IMG/VR virus record: IMGVR_UViG_3300025073_000880
Origin: a virus
Taxonomy: Duplodnaviria > Heunggongvirae > Uroviricota > Caudoviricetes
Reading direction: 5' to 3' (one strand)
Length of the DNA stretch: 28,975 nt
Made by a program: the position numbers and the translations under genes. The notes below the pieces were generated by a model, which searched no databases, was not told the DNA's origin, and was given only the letters and a program-made list of their open reading frames with translations. Shown here one piece after another: positions 1 through 28,067 of this stretch (within the stretch, counting starts at the first letter, position 1; each line of letters opens with the position of its first letter).

Positions 1-12
1 TAATTTTTTCAA

Positions 13-40
13 CCCCCCCCCCCCGCCGAAATTTTTCGGC
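13..40. repeat. C12 homopolymer followed by a small perfect hairpin
   Basis: 12 consecutive C at 13-24; GCCGAA(25-30)/TTCGGC(35-40) inverted repeat. Confidence 0.85.
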
Positions 41-95: not shown

Positions 96-243
96 ATAAA
101 AAAATTCACAAGGATAAACCAGCCTACTCCCACCTACCGCTAAGTGGTACAGCCCTAGGGCCGTACAGCTGATTTATCCTTGTGAACTTTGTTATTGGCG
201 GTATTTGGAGCATAATTTTGCATTTTGTTATCCTAAATAAACT
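96..243 (-). ncRNA. Candidate structured small RNA or cis-regulatory leader (three-way junction)
   Basis: 28-bp inverted repeat 96-123/168-195 encloses two hairpins (147-166 and 130-147). Four + strand A-C mismatches become G.U pairs on the - strand. A consensus promoter lies just upstream on - and the 3' arm ends in a U7 run. Confidence 0.6.
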
Positions 244-249
244 ATCAAC

Positions 250-278
250 AGTATACCAAGATTGCACCATTTTGTCAA
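250..278 (-). promoter_or_regulatory. Sigma70-type promoter with extended -10, firing leftward, predicted TSS about 243
   Basis: - strand TTGACA (278-273), 17-nt spacer, TG-G-TATACT (-10 at 255-250). Confidence 0.75.
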
Positions 279-316: not shown

Positions 317-325
317 TGTGGATAA
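317..325 (-). promoter_or_regulatory. Perfect DnaA box (TTATCCACA)
   Basis: + strand TGTGGATAA at 317-325, intergenic, 2 nt beyond the stop of the 328-627 gene. Confidence 0.55.
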
Positions 326-327
326 CT

Positions 328-627
328 TTAAATCTCTTTTGATGAATTTTCCTGTTCTTGATAATTAAACGGGCTTTTATATGTCCCCACGACTTGAGTT
401 TTTAGTTTTCGCATATTATACACAAATAAGTCGGGCTCAACCGCTAGTTTTCTTTTAAAAAAGTCATGAACAACCTGCATTAAATCTTCAGTTTCCTCAA
501 ACAGGAAATAACCCACGGGACGCCTGTTTGATCCCTCATACTGATAATCAATCCTGTCAAGCTCGTAGCCTAATGTAATAAGCACTGAAGCAAGAGCAAT
601 GTCCCTCGTAGAATACATTTTTGTCAT
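328..627 (-). CDS. DUF5659-like small protein
   Basis: Pattern STRDIALASVLITLGY...FLFEE...VEPDLFVYNMRKLK resembles DUF5659 as I recall it; has its own upstream promoter and an A-rich T-ATG start. Confidence 0.6.
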   Translation of the reverse strand: MTKMYSTRDIALASVLITLGYELDRIDYQYEGSNRRPVGYFLFEETEDLMQVVHDFFKRKLAVEPDLFVYNMRKLKTQVVGTYKSPFNYQEQENSSKEI

Positions 628-2770: not shown

Positions 2771-3811
2771 ATGCTTGGTGTCATCGGAGATTTACATTTC
2801 AAAGATAGTTTGGGCTATGCGGACTATATAAAAGATAGAAGAGAAAAAGAGAAAAAAGAAATCTTAGATTTTATCGTTGAAACACTAAGCGGTTGCGACA
2901 AAATTATTCTGATGGGTGATAATTTCAACACCAAAAATAATACCTCTAAAACCATTAAAGATTTTGTATCCTTTGTGGAACGCTTTAATGGCAAGGAGGT
3001 TTTTATATTGGCTGGGAATCATGAAAAATTTGGCGATGGTAAAAGTGCCATTGATTTTATGAAAGAATTAAAAAGTAAAGCTGACTGGCATATCATTACA
3101 ACTGAACCATTAACCGTATCATTACACGAGAAGCAACTACTTTTTGTTCCCTATTATTCTAAAAATGAATTGGGAGTAGGAACAAACGAAGAAGCTGCTA
3201 ATGTTATGATGGATATAATCAAATCTCAAGTCGCACCTCAAAAAACATCAAACATGCTATTTCTTCATCAAACAATATCAGGATTTGATGCAGGTGGGAC
3301 TCTCACGGATATGTTTAATGAAATAGTTTTACCTCAAAAAAAATTAGAAAAAATATTTGAGATTATTGTGTGCGGGCATATACATAATCCATCTGTTTCA
3401 GGTAAAACATTAATGACTGGAAGTGTATTTACAAATGAGGTTGGGGAACATGAAAAATTTATTTATATAATTGATGAGAAAACCTACAAAACTACACACA
3501 TAAAACTGCCATGCAGACCGATAATAAAGATTGAAAACCCATCCATAAATGATTTAAACGGTATTGACCCTCAAAGTATTGTAAAAGTGGTTTTAACAAA
3601 AAAAACAAAAGACATTGAAATTATCCGTTCGAAATTGGACTCATTTGCCGCTCATTTGCTTGTTGAACAATACCCAAATAAAAGAAAAAAAATTGATTTT
3701 GGAAACAATCTTCTTGACTTTAATATTGTTGACCTTTTAAAAACTTATGCTAAAGAAAGGACTGTTGATGAAAAAAAACTTCTTCTTGCATGGGATATGA
3801 TTAAAGATTGA
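2771..3811 (+). CDS. sbcD: SbcD/Mre11-family metallophosphoesterase nuclease (T4 gp47-like)
   Basis: GDLH, MGD, AGNHE, FLHQ and CGHIH motifs; cognate SbcC two genes downstream. Confidence 0.9.
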   Translation: MLGVIGDLHFKDSLGYADYIKDRREKEKKEILDFIVETLSGCDKIILMGDNFNTKNNTSKTIKDFVSFVERFNGKEVFILAGNHEKFGDGKSAIDFMKELKSKADWHIITTEPLTVSLHEKQLLFVPYYSKNELGVGTNEEAANVMMDIIKSQVAPQKTSNMLFLHQTISGFDAGGTLTDMFNEIVLPQKKLEKIFEIIVCGHIHNPSVSGKTLMTGSVFTNEVGEHEKFIYIIDEKTYKTTHIKLPCRPIIKIENPSINDLNGIDPQSIVKVVLTKKTKDIEIIRSKLDSFAAHLLVEQYPNKRKKIDFGNNLLDFNIVDLLKTYAKERTVDEKKLLLAWDMIKD

Positions 3812-3897
3812 AAGGATTTAAATTATAGCTTTTGGTCACTTTATAAATGTAAAATCTTTATAAAAAATATCGGTATCAAGGCTAATAAAAAAAATAT

Positions 3898-4434
3898 ATG
3901 AGTAACGTTATAGGCCTTGATTTATCTTTAACAGAGACTGGGGTTGCAATTATTAACAGCAATAAACTAGACCCAACACTCATTGAAATAAAATCAAAGC
4001 CAACAGCTATTAAAACTCCTATAAATGAGCTCAAAAGAATACTTGGAATAAAGAATTCAATCATGGATGTAGTTAAAGGTAGCGAAATAGACATAGCAGT
4101 AATTGAAGGCTTAGCCTTTATGGCAAAAAACACAACTTCATTAATACAATTATCAGGACTTAACTATATGATTAGAGAGGCCTTGTATAATTTAAGTATA
4201 AAATTCGTTATAGTAGCCCCAACACAATTAAAAAAATATATAACAGGCAAGGGTAATTCCCCAAAGGATACAATGATGCTTGAAACATATAAGCGTTACG
4301 GCCAATCGTTTACAAGCAATAATCTTTGTGATGCCTTTGGGCTTGCAACTATTGGTGTTAATTTGCTCCACCAAGATAAAAAAATAACCATTCCACAAAA
4401 AGAAACCATTAAATTATTAACCCCACAATTATGA
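3898..4434 (+). CDS. Phage RuvC-like Holliday junction resolvase
   Basis: VIGLDLSLTETGVA, AVIEG, VAPTQLKKYITGKGN and NNLCDAFGLA motifs. Confidence 0.85.
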   Translation: MSNVIGLDLSLTETGVAIINSNKLDPTLIEIKSKPTAIKTPINELKRILGIKNSIMDVVKGSEIDIAVIEGLAFMAKNTTSLIQLSGLNYMIREALYNLSIKFVIVAPTQLKKYITGKGNSPKDTMMLETYKRYGQSFTSNNLCDAFGLATIGVNLLHQDKKITIPQKETIKLLTPQL

Positions 4435-4781
4435 CAGAAGGAAAAAAAAATCTTAAAGGTTTTTCGCAAATAATGAAATCAAGAGATACCTCTCAATGCC
4501 CACACTGTAACAAAGAAATTTATATTTCGATATCTAGTATGGTTCCGATTATATCATCTATTATTACCCCTGACACAGCCAAAGAGGCTAAAGAGATTGT
4601 TAAAAAATTTATAGATGGTTCAGCGTTTAAGAACCCCGAAGAAAAACAACAACGGTTAAGTTGGCTTAACGATGAAACTACAATTATTGACCCAGAAGAT
4701 GTTAAAAGTTTTCTTGACGATGTGGCTAGGAATTGTATAACCACACCAAAACTTGATGATATTAAAGACAAAAAAGAATAA
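4431..4781 (+). CDS. Hypothetical protein with one CxxC (CPHC)
   Basis: ATGA overlap with the resolvase stop; stop 2 nt before the sbcC start. Confidence 0.7.
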   Translation: MTEGKKNLKGFSQIMKSRDTSQCPHCNKEIYISISSMVPIISSIITPDTAKEAKEIVKKFIDGSAFKNPEEKQQRLSWLNDETTIIDPEDVKSFLDDVARNCITTPKLDDIKDKKE

Positions 4782-4783
4782 AC

Positions 4784-6901
4784 ATGTTAAATATTAGCCA
4801 AATACATCTTAAAAATTTTATCAGTCATGCGGATACTAAATTAAATCTAACTATTCCGCAAAAGGTTTTAATTGACGGAAAGTCTGGACATGGTAAATCA
4901 TCAGTTATAGATGCTTTCATTTGGTGTTTATATGGAAGAAGTAGAGCTGACAACAGGTCTCTTATAAGGCGAGGGGCTGAGCGAGCAGAAGTGTCTGTTG
5001 CCTTGATTGATGGTCAAACAAATGATGAATATAAAATAACAAGATCAATAACCAATGGTGGTAAGCATGACTTGACCGTAACCCACAAAGAAAAAAAGTC
5101 TTTCCTGCCAATAAAGGTTAATGGTGTTAAAAACATCCAAATGTTTATAGAGCGAGATTTATTAAAATCTTCATATCTTTTGTTTATAAATTCTATCGCT
5201 TACCCCCAAGATAACCAAGAAAATTTCGTAAAACAAACTGCGACCAAACGCAAGGAGATAATAATGGAAATGATAAAGGCGGAAGATTATGACACTTATT
5301 ATAATAAAACAAAAGATAAGCTTAATGAACTTAAAATTGCTCTGGAAAAAAATCTTTCTCGGATTGAATCATCCCAAAACACGATTAATACCTATAAAGA
5401 TATAGCGTCTGGTCTGAATGTTTTGTTGGCTGAAAAAAACAACCTCGAGAAACAATTAACCACTCTAAAAGAAAAGCTTTCAGAATTACAGATTAAGGTT
5501 GATGAAAAAAAAGTTTTAGATGCTACTATCAACCAAAAAAAGAACGAGTTGCTAAAAACCATTAAGGAAATAGAAATAAAACAGCTAGATATTGATAGCC
5601 AAAAGATGAAACTGGGAAGCCTTAACGGCATGGATATATCAAAAATGGAGGCTGATTGTGCTGGGTTGCAAGAAGATAAAGATACTTTAAAAATACTCCA
5701 AGCAGAAAGTTTAATCCTGTCAGATTGGTTAAACAGAAAAATGGCTGTTATGTCAAAAAAACCAGCAGAGGTTGATTTTGAAGAAGATATAAAAACGATA
5801 AACAAAACAATTATCGATTTAACCTACCAAAAAGTAACTATTTGTCCCGAGATACAAAAACCATGCCCACTTTATGATAAAGAAAGACAGGGTAAACTTG
5901 AAGAAAATAAAGTGTTGTTGAAAATAACCTACGATAAAAAGAAAAAACAGGCTGAAGATGTCAATGAATATATAATAAAATTAGCTGAGCTCGGAGACGA
6001 ACCCGTGGTGGATACAGAGAAAATTAATGCCCTTTCAGCCGTTGTCTCTAAGAAAGAAAAAATTTTTGCTGACTTTAATCGTCTTAAAACCACCAGAGAT
6101 GTTGATATCAAAAACACCCAAGAAATAATAGCCAAAAGCCAGGATGATTTTAATATCTTAGTCGGCTTAAAGGAAACAATATCTGAAGAGATAACAGGGA
6201 TAGAGTTAAAAATAAAAGACTTAGAATCGTTTAAGGTTGAAGCGTCTAATGTTGAGCTGAATATTTCAACAGCGAACACAGATATGCTTGATGTTGTAAA
6301 CAAAATAGCTTCTGCTGAAAATGCTAAAAAACTTGTTGAGAAAGAACAAGAAAATATAAATATTGTCACCAAAGAAAATGAATTGGTTGGGGACAACACT
6401 GAATGTTTAACACTTTTGAAAGAAGCCTTCAGCCCTACCGGCATTAAGGCGATTATAATTGATTATATAATCCCAAGGATGGAAGAAAAGATTAATGACA
6501 TACTTGGAAAGCTTTCGGATTTTAGAGTTCGTTTAGATACTCAAAAAAAAGGGTTAGGTAAAGATACTGTTTTAGAGGGGCTATTTATCAGCATATTTAA
6601 TGAACTAGGTGAAGAGTTTGATTTTGATAACTATAGTGGATCTGAAAAGATGAGAATTACCTATGCCATATCAGAGAGTCTAGCTTCAATCCAAAACTGT
6701 GGGTTTAGAATCCTTGATGAGTTCATCCATGGTCTTGACACAGAAACAGAAGAAAAATTTGCAAATATTATTTTACGACTTAAAAACGAAGTTGACCAAC
6801 TGTTTTGCATTACCCACATTCAAAGCATTAAAGATTTATTTGAAGAAAAGATTTTTGTTAAAAAAATAAACGGATTATCTTCAATTACGTATGGTTATTG
6901 A
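4784..6901 (+). CDS. sbcC: SbcC/Rad50-family ABC ATPase (T4 gp46-like)
   Basis: Walker A GKSGHGKSS, Q-loop YPQ, long coiled coil with central cysteine pair, signature YSGSE, Walker B ILDE, D-loop GLD, H-loop ITH. Confidence 0.92.
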   Translation: MLNISQIHLKNFISHADTKLNLTIPQKVLIDGKSGHGKSSVIDAFIWCLYGRSRADNRSLIRRGAERAEVSVALIDGQTNDEYKITRSITNGGKHDLTVTHKEKKSFLPIKVNGVKNIQMFIERDLLKSSYLLFINSIAYPQDNQENFVKQTATKRKEIIMEMIKAEDYDTYYNKTKDKLNELKIALEKNLSRIESSQNTINTYKDIASGLNVLLAEKNNLEKQLTTLKEKLSELQIKVDEKKVLDATINQKKNELLKTIKEIEIKQLDIDSQKMKLGSLNGMDISKMEADCAGLQEDKDTLKILQAESLILSDWLNRKMAVMSKKPAEVDFEEDIKTINKTIIDLTYQKVTICPEIQKPCPLYDKERQGKLEENKVLLKITYDKKKKQAEDVNEYIIKLAELGDEPVVDTEKINALSAVVSKKEKIFADFNRLKTTRDVDIKNTQEIIAKSQDDFNILVGLKETISEEITGIELKIKDLESFKVEASNVELNISTANTDMLDVVNKIASAENAKKLVEKEQENINIVTKENELVGDNTECLTLLKEAFSPTGIKAIIIDYIIPRMEEKINDILGKLSDFRVRLDTQKKGLGKDTVLEGLFISIFNELGEEFDFDNYSGSEKMRITYAISESLASIQNCGFRILDEFIHGLDTETEEKFANIILRLKNEVDQLFCITHIQSIKDLFEEKIFVKKINGLSSITYGY

Positions 6902-7316: not shown

Positions 7317-7561
7317 ACATTTCTTTTATTAAAAAAAATGAACCATCATTAGTATTCAGACATAAAATAGATACTATTTTTGAAGGAACACCAATTGAAA
7401 TTGAACCTTTAACCTTAACAGTTGGAAAGTGTCTTATAAAAACATTTAGGCTTGCACCGTTTTTATATTCAACCTGTGTGTTTAATGGAATGAGTATATG
7501 CTGTGGGTTTAATACACCAAGTGAAGCAAAAGATTTCGCTTTAAATGTAAACAATCTATGA
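7313..7561 (+). CDS. Hypothetical protein
   Basis: 82-aa ORF with ATGA overlaps at both ends. Confidence 0.6.
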   Translation: MNISFIKKNEPSLVFRHKIDTIFEGTPIEIEPLTLTVGKCLIKTFRLAPFLYSTCVFNGMSICCGFNTPSEAKDFALNVNNL

Positions 7562-8124
7562 AAGAAAAAAAGCTTTTTAAGCCTGACACTTCTCTCTTAA
7601 AACGTTATGTCGGCTCACATAGTAAACAAAGCCGTTTAGCTGAAAGCTCTGATATTGAAACAATAAAAAAAGATTCAACCGATATGTTCCAACTTTTATA
7701 TTTACCATACGGTCATTATAAGGGTGGTTATGCTATAGCTCATCCTCAAATAAATAAAACAGACCCAATTAGGTTTTTTGTCACAATAGACCAAGATATT
7801 ATAATCAACCCTACCATAATTAAACACACAAATGCCTTTGTTAATTCGGATGAAGGATGTTTGGACTTCCCTAATGAAATAATGGTTACTGTTCAAAGGT
7901 TTAATAAAATAACAGTTAAATACCAAGAACTTAATCTCATTAACGATAATTTTATAATATCTGACACAAAGACAAAAGAACTTTCTGGGTTTGAGGCTAA
8001 GGTTTGGCAGCATGAAATTGATCATCTTAATGGTGTAAATATTATGTCAAAAGAACATCACGCTATAAATAATATAAATAAAATAAAAAAAATCTATGGA
8101 AACCCAACAAGAACAAAAAAGTGA
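7558..8124 (+). CDS. def: Peptide deformylase
   Basis: Motif 1 GYAIAHPQ (variant), motif 2 EGCLD, motif 3 QHEIDHLNG. Confidence 0.93.
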   Translation: MKEKKLFKPDTSLLKRYVGSHSKQSRLAESSDIETIKKDSTDMFQLLYLPYGHYKGGYAIAHPQINKTDPIRFFVTIDQDIIINPTIIKHTNAFVNSDEGCLDFPNEIMVTVQRFNKITVKYQELNLINDNFIISDTKTKELSGFEAKVWQHEIDHLNGVNIMSKEHHAINNINKIKKIYGNPTRTKK

Positions 8125-8518
8125 ACAAACAACAGATGCCAGTACCCTAGTTAATGTTAATGACTATGAGTCCGTATATGTCTCATTTATGCAAGATTAT
8201 AAAAGAGGAGTAACTGACGGTGAAATGGTTGGTGTCACAATTGCTAAATTGGCACAATGCTATGGAACAATTAATAGGTCTTTAAATAATTGGTCTAGGG
8301 TTGCAGGCGAGAAATACTCTGAAATACTTGAAAGCACAGAACCTGGTACAGGTAAAGCTATATCTGTTGCTAAAGCCTCTGTTGTCTGGGAATCTACGGA
8401 AGAATATAGAAAAATGAACTCCGTTAAAATTGACCTTGCCATTGTCGACCAATATATCAATGCACTCAAATATCTCCAAAAGGGAATTTTGAACGAATAC
8501 AGCCATAGTGGTTTATAA
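8096..8518 (+). CDS. Helical hypothetical protein, possibly a UvsY-like recombination mediator
   Basis: All-helical pattern (ISVAKASVVWESTEEYRKMNSVKIDLAIVDQYINALK) reminiscent of UvsY; sits in a recombination operon. The functional call is weak. Confidence 0.35.
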   Translation: METQQEQKSEQTTDASTLVNVNDYESVYVSFMQDYKRGVTDGEMVGVTIAKLAQCYGTINRSLNNWSRVAGEKYSEILESTEPGTGKAISVAKASVVWESTEEYRKMNSVKIDLAIVDQYINALKYLQKGILNEYSHSGL

Positions 8519-26390: not shown

Positions 26391-28067
26391 TTATTTTTCG
26401 CCTTTTATTCTTTTTGATTTAGATACACCTCTATAATTATTACTTGATATAGATAAATTAAATCTTTTACTATCCTTTAACCCATTAACAGTTTTAAAAC
26501 TTGACGTCGCTTTGATTGTTCTATTTTTAGCTATTATTTTATTATTATCACCACCAATTTTACCCTTTGTAGTTTTTGTCACGACTGTAAGAGTTTCTTT
26601 AAAATCTCTTCCTATCCCATCATATCTATGGTTAGACAAATTTCCGCGTTTTCTCAATATGCCTACATCTCCTTTTGGTGTCCAATCATCATAGTTAAAG
26701 CTTATTGTTGAAGTGCTAGAAGATGTGGAGCTTGAAGTGCTAGAAGATGTGGAGCTTGATGTGCTAGAGGATGTGGAGCTTGATGTGCTTGAACTTGTTG
26801 AGCTTGATGTTGATGAACTAGTAGAACTTGATGTACTTGAACTCGTTGAGCTTGTAGAACTTGAAGTACTAGAGCTTGTAGAACTTGAGGTGCTTGAAGT
26901 GCTAGAGCTAGTAGAGCTTGAGGTGCTAGAGCTGGTAGAGCTTGAGGTGCTAGAACTTGTAGAGCTTGAGGTGCTAGAGCTTGTAGAGCTTGAGGTGCTA
27001 GAGCTTGTAGAACTTGTAGAGCTTGAAGTGCTAGAGCTAGTAGAGCTTGAAGTGCTAGAACTGGTAGAGCTTGAGGTGCTAGAGCTGGTAGAGCTTGAGG
27101 TGCTAGAGCTGGTAGAGCTTGAAGTGCTAGAGCTTGTAGAACTTGAAGTGCTTGAACTGGTAGAGCTTGAGGTGCTAGAGCTAGTAGAGCTTGAAGTGCT
27201 AGAGCTGGTAGAGCTTGAGGTGCTAGAGCTTGTAGAGCTTGAAGTGCTTGAGCTTGTAGAGCTTGAAGTGCTTGAGCTTGTAGAGCTTGAGGTACTAGAG
27301 CTTGTAGAGCTTGAGGTACTAGAGCTTGTAGAGCTTGAAGTGCTAGAGCTTGTAGAGCTTGAAGTGCTTGAGCTTGTAGAGCTTGAGGTACTAGAGCTTG
27401 TAGAGCTTGAAGTGCTAGAGCTAGTAGAGCTTGAAGTGCTAGAGCTGGTAGAGCTTGAGGTGCTAGAGCTAGTAGAGCTTGAAGTGCTAGAGCTGGTAGA
27501 GCTTGAGGTGCTAGAGCTAGTAGAGCTTGAAGTGCTAGAGCTGGTAGAGCTTGAGGTGCTAGAGCTAGTAGAGCTTGAAGTGCTTGAGCTTGTAGAGCTT
27601 GAAGTGCTAGAGCTTGTAGAGCTTGAAGTGCTAGAGCTAGTAGAGCTTGAAGTCGAAGAACTGGTAGAGCTTGAAGTGCTAGAACTTGTAGAGCTTGAGG
27701 TACTAGAGCTTGTAGAGCTTGAAGTGCTAGAGCTTGTAGAGCTTGAAGTGCTAGAGCTTGTAGAGCTTGAAGTGCTTGAGCTTGTAGAGCTTGAAGTGCT
27801 AGAGCTTGTAGAGCTTGAAGTGCTAGAGCTAGTAGAGCTTGAAGTGCTAGAACTTGTAGAGCTTGAGGTCGAAGAACTGGTAGAGCTAGAAGTGCTTGAG
27901 CTTGTAGAGCTTGAGGTGCTTGAGGTGCTTGAGCTTGTAGAGCTTGAAGTGCTAGAGCTTGTAGAGCTTGAGGTCGAAGAACTGGTAGATGACGATGTGC
28001 TGGATGTCGTCGTTACTACAAGTCCACCGTATTCGACTTCAGCATATGCGTGATATCCGTATGGCAT
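26391..28067 (-). CDS. Ser/Thr-rich tandem repeat virion-region protein with basic C-terminal tail
   Basis: 18-aa leader, 436 consecutive S/T residues, about 104-aa Lys/Arg-rich C-terminus. Unit variants are silent in this frame. Confidence 0.8.
   Translation of the reverse strand: MPYGYHAYAEVEYGGLVVTTTSSTSSSTSSSTSSSTSSSTSSSTSSSTSSTSSSTSSSTSSSTSSSTSSSTSSSTSSSTSSSTSSSTSSSTSSSTSSSTSSSTSSSTSSSTSSSTSSSTSSSTSSSTSSSTSSSTSSSTSSSTSSSTSSSTSSSTSSSTSSSTSSSTSSSTSSSTSSSTSSSTSSSTSSSTSSSTSSSTSSSTSSSTSSSTSSSTSSSTSSSTSSSTSSSTSSSTSSSTSSSTSSSTSSSTSSSTSSSTSSSTSSSTSSSTSSSTSSSTSSSTSSSTSSSTSSSTSSSTSSSTSSSTSSSTSSSTSSSTSSSTSSSTSSSTSSSTSSSTSSSTSSSTSSSTSSTSSSTSSSTSSSTSSSTSSSTSSSTSSSTSSSTSSSTSSTSSSTSSSTSSSTSSTSSSTSSSTSSSTSSSTSSSTSSSTSSSTSSSTSSSTSSSTSSSTSTISFNYDDWTPKGDVGILRKRGNLSNHRYDGIGRDFKETLTVVTKTTKGKIGGDNNKIIAKNRTIKATSSFKTVNGLKDSKRFNLSISSNNYRGVSKSKRIKGEK
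26706..28013 (-). repeat. Coding tandem repeat, about 54 imperfect 24-nt units encoding (SSST)2
   Basis: Consensus + strand unit GTGCTAGAGCTTGTAGAGCTTGAA with third-position variation. Confidence 0.95.

Follow-up and report, generated by a model that had tools for sequence, protein, structure and literature searches.

As an extended consensus-type promoter near one end of the window (the whole stretch of phage DNA analysed here, 28,975 nucleotides) points into a long inverted repeat, we wondered whether the predicted RNA is a free-standing small RNA or a switch for the genes that lie behind it.

Fold and surroundings of the predicted leader RNA

A consensus scan confirmed the extended leftward promoter that an earlier note, made from the letters alone, had seen firing from about position 243. 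On the - strand, it consists of a -35 hexamer TTGACA at 278-273, a 17-nt spacer and TG-n-TATACT at 258-250 (TATACT at 255-250), matching the consensus at 11 of 12 positions, and transcription is predicted to start at about 243-244. The - strand from 245 to 90 folds at -56.6 kcal/mol (z = -6.37; 0 of 200 shuffles as good), whereas the + strand of the same region folds more weakly (-41.8 kcal/mol, z = -3.7). The fold reproduced the three-way junction described before, with a 28-bp closing stem (P1, 195-168 with 123-96, a 28-nt inverted repeat of 89%) and two abutting hairpins, P2 and P3, that share C147, joined to P1 by a linker at 129-124 (Table 1). Four mismatches of the + strand (104/187, 119/172, 151/162 and 134/143) are indeed G.U pairs on the - strand; a fifth mismatch in P1, C191.U100, is not a wobble and was absent from the earlier description. 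Together, the G.U asymmetry and the greater stability of the - strand support the suggestion that selection acts on the - strand RNA fold.

The proposal that the 3' arm of P1 could terminate its own transcript is also supported, as U7 was found at 104-98, and we predict a self-terminating leader; a simple terminator scan did not call P1-U7 because the loop is longer than 8 nt. Searching Rfam, as had been advised, matched no known family: the window gave no match at the gathering score and none with a meaningful E-value, only chance miRNA-type matches, as did 20 homologous loci searched at E up to 5. ARAGORN was likewise negative for tRNA and tmRNA in the window.

Table 1. Features of the leader region in window coordinates.
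Feature	Position	Strand	Basis
Sigma-70-type promoter, extended -10 (TTGACA-17-TATACT)	250..278	-	consensus scan
5' leader with antisense target boxes and leader-ORF start	196..243	-	pairing score, comparison
Second possible leader ORF, 22 codons, AUG 223 after AGGA (234-231), stop in P2 loop	155..223	-	
Leader ORF, 29 codons, AUG 213-211, stop 126-124 in junction linker	124..213	-	frame analysis
Target box b1 (UGCUCC), overlaps AUG 213-211, pairs with b'	207..212	-	complementarity
Target box a1 (UACCGC), pairs with a'	198..203	-	complementarity
P1 5' arm, closing/terminator stem	168..195	-	fold, inverted repeat
P2 hairpin, CUAG loop, scaffold	147..166	-	fold; comparison with relatives
P3 hairpin, with antisense box a' (GCGGUA, 140-135) in its loop region	130..147	-	fold, pairing
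Junction linker, antisense box b' (GGAGUA)	125..130	-	complementarity
P1 3' arm, ends in U7 (104-98), predicted termination site	96..123	-	fold
DUF5659 gene, syntenic anchor for homologue search	328..627	-	context

The window belongs to a larger phage contig, L001, which spans at least 76.8 kb and has the same sequence where the two overlap. To the left of the window, this contig carries on the strand of the RNA a 152-aa ORF, a 301-aa ORF, tRNA genes, methylases, a primase-helicase, recA and groEL. The product of the 301-aa ORF is similar to clusters with Phage_rep_O, HTH_36 and Phg_2220_C, and in the window phage the 152-aa ORF and a poly-G tract separate the RNA from this initiator-like gene. 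As the initiator-like gene, the primase-helicase and recA follow the RNA and DUF5659 lies upstream of it, we regard the RNA as the leader of a replication operon, which agrees with the earlier idea of an attenuator for genes to the left.

Homologous loci and leader-loop complementarity

Relatives of the DUF5659 gene in viral, metagenome and genome collections gave 85 non-redundant loci; 64 have a promoter just downstream of DUF5659, 46 have a long stem with a U-tract, and 39 gave no promoter or module call. We kept 41 and left out L017, L038, L067, L078 and L083, where the automatic call had misplaced the module. As the U-tract was a selection criterion, it is not independent evidence, and the family statistics are to be read with the lack of phylogenetic independence among the loci in mind. 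The 41 loci share a layout of DUF5659 gene, promoter, leader, structure, U-tract and, mostly, a replication-initiator-like gene, often encoding an HTH_36/DnaD_N, Lin1244_N or Phage_rep_O-type protein. A promoter matching at least 10 of 12 positions lies in the same location in 37 of them (a count partly due to how the loci were selected), and the sense fold is more stable than the antisense fold in 37 of 41. The window has the three-stem P1/P2/P3 junction; elsewhere in the family, the number of inner hairpins is sometimes one or three. In the scaffold hairpin P2, GNRA-type loops are common, and 12 of the family's 26 four-base loops are GNRA, UNCG or CUNG.

Across subfamilies, we found no sequence conservation: MAFFT gave no usable alignment, and a covariance model built from five related modules recovered one more locus and not the window. 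It is therefore layout and synteny, rather than sequence, that define the family. Within one subfamily (n = 5), 13 of 33 scaffold pairs had changed on both sides and 96% were paired, more than in any shuffled or slid control. When viral contigs were scanned for exact patterns of P3 and of the P1 arms, there were 0 matches; blastn against phage records gave chance matches only, and the glycosyltransferase, used as an anchor, led to no relatives among viral contigs. The 301-aa initiator-like protein has its homologues in other gene contexts. Two close relatives, L138 and L139, have a DUF5659 gene about 91% identical to that of the window. In both, the promoter hexamers are unchanged and 6 of 17 spacer bases differ, positions 223-196 are identical, neither the target boxes nor the antisense boxes have changed, and two bases of the P2 loop differ. 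As they carry a different HTH_36 initiator-like gene directly after the module, the module is retained when the gene behind it is exchanged. Downstream of DUF5659, L003, L018, L105 and L122 have single-hairpin switch versions whose loop bears a single address of 10-11 nt, and L026 apparently has two structured modules in tandem.

The 5' part of the transcript had been described as single-stranded over about 48 nt. These 48 nt are not inert: they contain two boxes complementary to the structure and two AUGs (223 and 213). In antiparallel order, b1 (212-207) matches b' in the linker (130-125) and a1 (203-198) matches a' in the P3 loop (140-135), so that the first target box covers AUG 213, the start of a 29-codon ORF running through the structure. 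By a pairing score, the window leader ranks 1 of 41 with its own loops, and its score was matched or beaten by 17 of 5,000 dinucleotide shuffles of the leader, an optimistic figure because the score was designed after the match in the window was known. With this score, which was devised once the window and about seven loci had been seen, the cognate mean across the 41 loci was -16.3 compared with -6.4 for non-cognate combinations (0 of 100,000 permutations), and own loops ranked top in 21 loci against about 1 expected (one all-zero case discounted). An independent test on nascent-fold energies agreed (-6.3 versus -2.6 kcal/mol, 0 of 50,000), the window ranking third. Moreover, L007 and L036, whose near-identical modules have few differences, show compensatory changes in both address helices. 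A second target copy downstream of the module was rejected: in the 150 nt after the module, no a2b2/seqC counterpart was found, as cognate loops pair no better there than others (-10.6 versus -11.5), and the window ranks 37 of 39.

When the AUG nearest the module was taken in each locus (n = 34, partly related), the leader ORF in its frame had a median of 34 codons versus 8 and 6.5 for the two remaining frames, and it reached at least 20 codons in 29 of 34 loci versus 5 and 6 (p = 4e-10). The target starts within -3 to +12 of the leader AUG in 18 of 24 loci. A Shine-Dalgarno-like motif is rare (2 of 34 leader AUGs), and the leader stop overlaps or abuts the next start in L007, L105 and L126. 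A conserved leader peptide was ruled out, as the sequences differ and the module is read in different frames; it therefore appears that translation of the leader ORF, rather than its product, matters. Overall, these comparisons give good support to the view that the address pairings and the open leader frame are under selection.

A proposed antisense attenuator and competing readings

As two exposed patches of the RNA match the start of its own leader's tiny ORF, we favour a replication on/off switch over a free-standing decoy. At a probability of about 60%, we read the element as a c4/CI-type antisense attenuator heading a phage replication operon. From the computed fold, the leader-loop pairing with its locus-specific covariation, the open frame, the target on a start region, the gene position and the lack of a downstream target, we infer transcription, termination at U7, translation of the leader ORF, processing, action in trans, the sign of the switch and its biological purpose as follows. 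The promoter would yield a leader whose short ORF begins inside the target boxes. As long as mature RNA is absent, a ribosome would load at the leader AUG and cross the 5' arm of P1 into the junction; with the ribosome over P1, the P1-U7 terminator could not form and transcription would read through into the replication genes. Transcripts that have terminated or been processed would fold into the stable three-way junction, displaying a' in the P3 loop and b' in the linker. Once accumulated, this RNA would act in trans, its a' and b' pairing with a1 and b1 of new leaders and covering the AUG and first codons, so that ribosome loading is blocked, P1 forms and transcription ends before the replication genes. 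Because such pairing would block leader translation and let P1 terminate, the RNA would limit its own operon as well as any incoming genome of the same address, as copy or superinfection control.

Points that weigh against this reading are the missing downstream target copy, the rarity of Shine-Dalgarno-like motifs at leader AUGs and, in the window phage, the 152-aa ORF and poly-G tract that precede the initiator-like gene. Action in trans is put forward as a proposal because the same complementarity can be met in cis: in nascent RNA with its 3' end at 134-116, a1:a' is paired with a probability of 0.9-1.0, and b1:b' also pairs at some lengths before P1 can form. This pairing and the lack of a second target copy would suit a switch acting in cis only, in which a1b1 and a'b' of a single nascent RNA pair to serve transiently as an antiterminator or timer; the speed of the ribosome, or a protein such as DUF5659, would choose between cis pairing and the P1 terminator, and the released RNA would play no part in trans. 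However, the junction wins once the 3' arm of P1 emerges (112 and beyond), and the cis fold sequesters no base of P1 and is 17 kcal/mol less stable at full length (-38.2 versus -55.7 kcal/mol). Moreover, many different addresses on one scaffold would be left without obvious reason, and the scaffold shows a' and b' unpaired, like an antisense RNA; we consider a purely cis-acting switch rather unlikely, though it is the main competitor of the favoured reading. As b1:b' covers the leader AUG in the cis fold, a competitor could free it, and a switch of opposite sign has a precedent in IsrK of Gifsy-1, a short RNA that activates in trans (PMC4825925). Here, the short RNA would relieve an inhibitory fold and turn the downstream genes on, which seems improbable, as any partner in trans that bears a' and b' would cover the AUG too; activation would be left to the 48-nt leader piece alone, for which no terminator was seen.

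A constitutive terminator with a free-standing small RNA or protein decoy, the main idea of the earlier note, would account for the very stable fold, the own promoter and the U7 tail. It is hard to reconcile with loops that have no family-wide sequence, that escape the subfamily covariance model in the window and that co-vary with their own leader, or with a leader frame that stays open; a promoter scan of the window also gave no further consensus promoter, from U7 to the ORF that follows, that could serve the downstream genes. We therefore give the decoy hardly any credence, and the suggested new kind of small RNA found no support either, as the element is laid out like the c4/CI antisense RNAs, a class that the note had not listed. 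Of scarcely greater likelihood is a DNA-level element such as a cruciform, an origin primer RNA with an R-loop on the poly-G tract (11-24), or a target for a counter-transcript from the opposite strand. The module does adjoin replication genes, with the poly-G tract and a DnaA-box match nearby, and opposite-strand promoter-like matches at 10 of 12 positions occur in 10 of 41 loci against about 3.5 expected, a mild excess. Nonetheless, the G.U asymmetry favours a - strand RNA, the opposite-strand matches vary in position across the family and reach 9 of 12 at best in the window, and the poly-G/R-loop primer was rejected since L138 and L139 keep the RNA and lack the tract.

Related systems and the phages that carry the element

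The CI RNA of the satellite phage P4 has a stalk, two stem-loops and a bulge pairing with its own leader. The attenuator proposed here shares this architecture and heads a replication operon with an upstream target, the counterpart of seqA, with premature termination of replication genes proposed. Unlike the seqA-cI-seqC arrangement, it has no seqC/kil downstream target, its leader ORF runs through the RNA itself, and its carriers are phages of about 100 kb without integrase, not satellites. In P4, CI causes premature termination ahead of the replication genes via seqA and seqC (PMC4825925). The c4 RNA has a' and b' boxes, an upstream a1b1, a downstream a2b2 and stable P2 tetraloops (Weinberg et al., PMC2864571 suppl. 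1), and both c4 and CI RNAs have been suggested to be RNase P substrates (PMC5499578). With c4 of phages P1 and P7 (RF01695), the element has in common a long stem P1, the scaffold hairpin P2, the hairpin P3, the a' and b' boxes, an a1b1 upstream in the same transcript and a target on a translation start. In contrast to c4, the window and 20 homologous loci have no match to the RF01695 covariance model, there are no structured c4-a1b1 hairpins, and stem P1 itself ends in a U-tract. Nor is there a downstream a2b2 at the next gene's ribosome-binding site, the covered start codon lying in the upstream copy, and the controlled gene is usually a replication initiator, not icd-ant, with next genes that are initiator-like or unassigned. 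Phages P1 and P4 act mainly through the downstream a2b2/seqC copy, which is absent here. As it has no model match, no downstream target and no icd/ant, we do not count the element as a c4/CI member.

In pT181 and pIP501, antisense RNAs from a counter-promoter attenuate plasmid rep, and trpL is a ribosome-mediated leader-peptide attenuator in which leader translation decides terminator formation. The proposed mechanism resembles these in its RNA-controlled termination ahead of rep and in leader-ORF translation deciding the terminator, but the antisense RNA would come from the same strand and transcript, and the leader peptide has no conserved sensing codons. As in IsrK-orf45-anrP of Gifsy-1, a short terminated RNA and a read-through mRNA are predicted from one promoter, and a small ORF lies inside a structured leader; IsrK differs in activating in trans, and the window has no Rfam isrK match. 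In the literature searched, we found no mention of DUF5659.

Related complete genomes measure 88-101 kb. As no tyrosine integrase was found in six genomes at least 90% complete, and no resolvase or clear ParA in five related genomes tested, a role in lysogeny is doubtful; control of timing or copy number, and exclusion of superinfecting phages, are more plausible than classical lysogeny. Two short contigs with the anchor gene were binned in Patescibacteria genomes, which is weak evidence for Patescibacteria as hosts.

If the attenuator reading is correct, c4/CI-type RNA control, a principle known for decades, would also operate in a large group of phages that are uncultured and apparently do not integrate, with a wiring simpler than known: one upstream target on the leader-ORF start and the RNA's own stem as the terminator. 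Tentatively, and at slightly less than even odds, it might represent a minimal one-target antisense immunity, in which the RNA, its sole target and a translation-sensing leader ORF fit into about 150 nt and gate the replication initiator directly, carried by non-integrating groundwater phages, possibly of Patescibacteria. The dozens of interchangeable addresses would then be incompatibility or superinfection groups, their sequences would predict mutual exclusion among related phages, and they could form a natural library of orthogonal transcription attenuators.

Several other features were seen in these genomes. Within the 301-aa initiator-like gene, at about 8140-8215 (-) of L001, five CAAAGCCC direct repeats resemble the iterons of lambda O and are a candidate replication origin. 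Between the RNA and the 152-aa ORF, window positions 11-40 (- strand) hold a G12 tract (poly-G 11-24) and a GCCGAAAAATTTCGGC hairpin; both are present in several assemblies of the same phage and are absent, with the 152-aa ORF, from L138 and L139. Perfect DnaA-box matches (TTATCCACA) lie at window 317-325 and 1906-1914, and a consensus promoter follows closely downstream of each; the match at 317-325 is conserved in L138 and L139, and L094 has two in the same location. Directly after tRNA-Ile(TAT) (7497-7569), L001 7412-7490 (-) is tRNA-shaped with a UCA anticodon and was not called by ARAGORN; the genes checked end in TAA, and it may be a suppressor, recoding or degenerate tRNA. In L002, a 2-kb non-coding stretch at about 3000-5000, between the glycosyltransferase and DUF5659 genes, consists of units of about 100-150 nt separated by a repeated AATAAACAATTATT motif, with one tRNA called, and is possibly an array of small RNAs. 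Finally, at about 26660-28000 (-) of the window, a long 24-nt (9+15) tandem repeat in a 558-aa ORF encodes a serine/threonine-rich tract.
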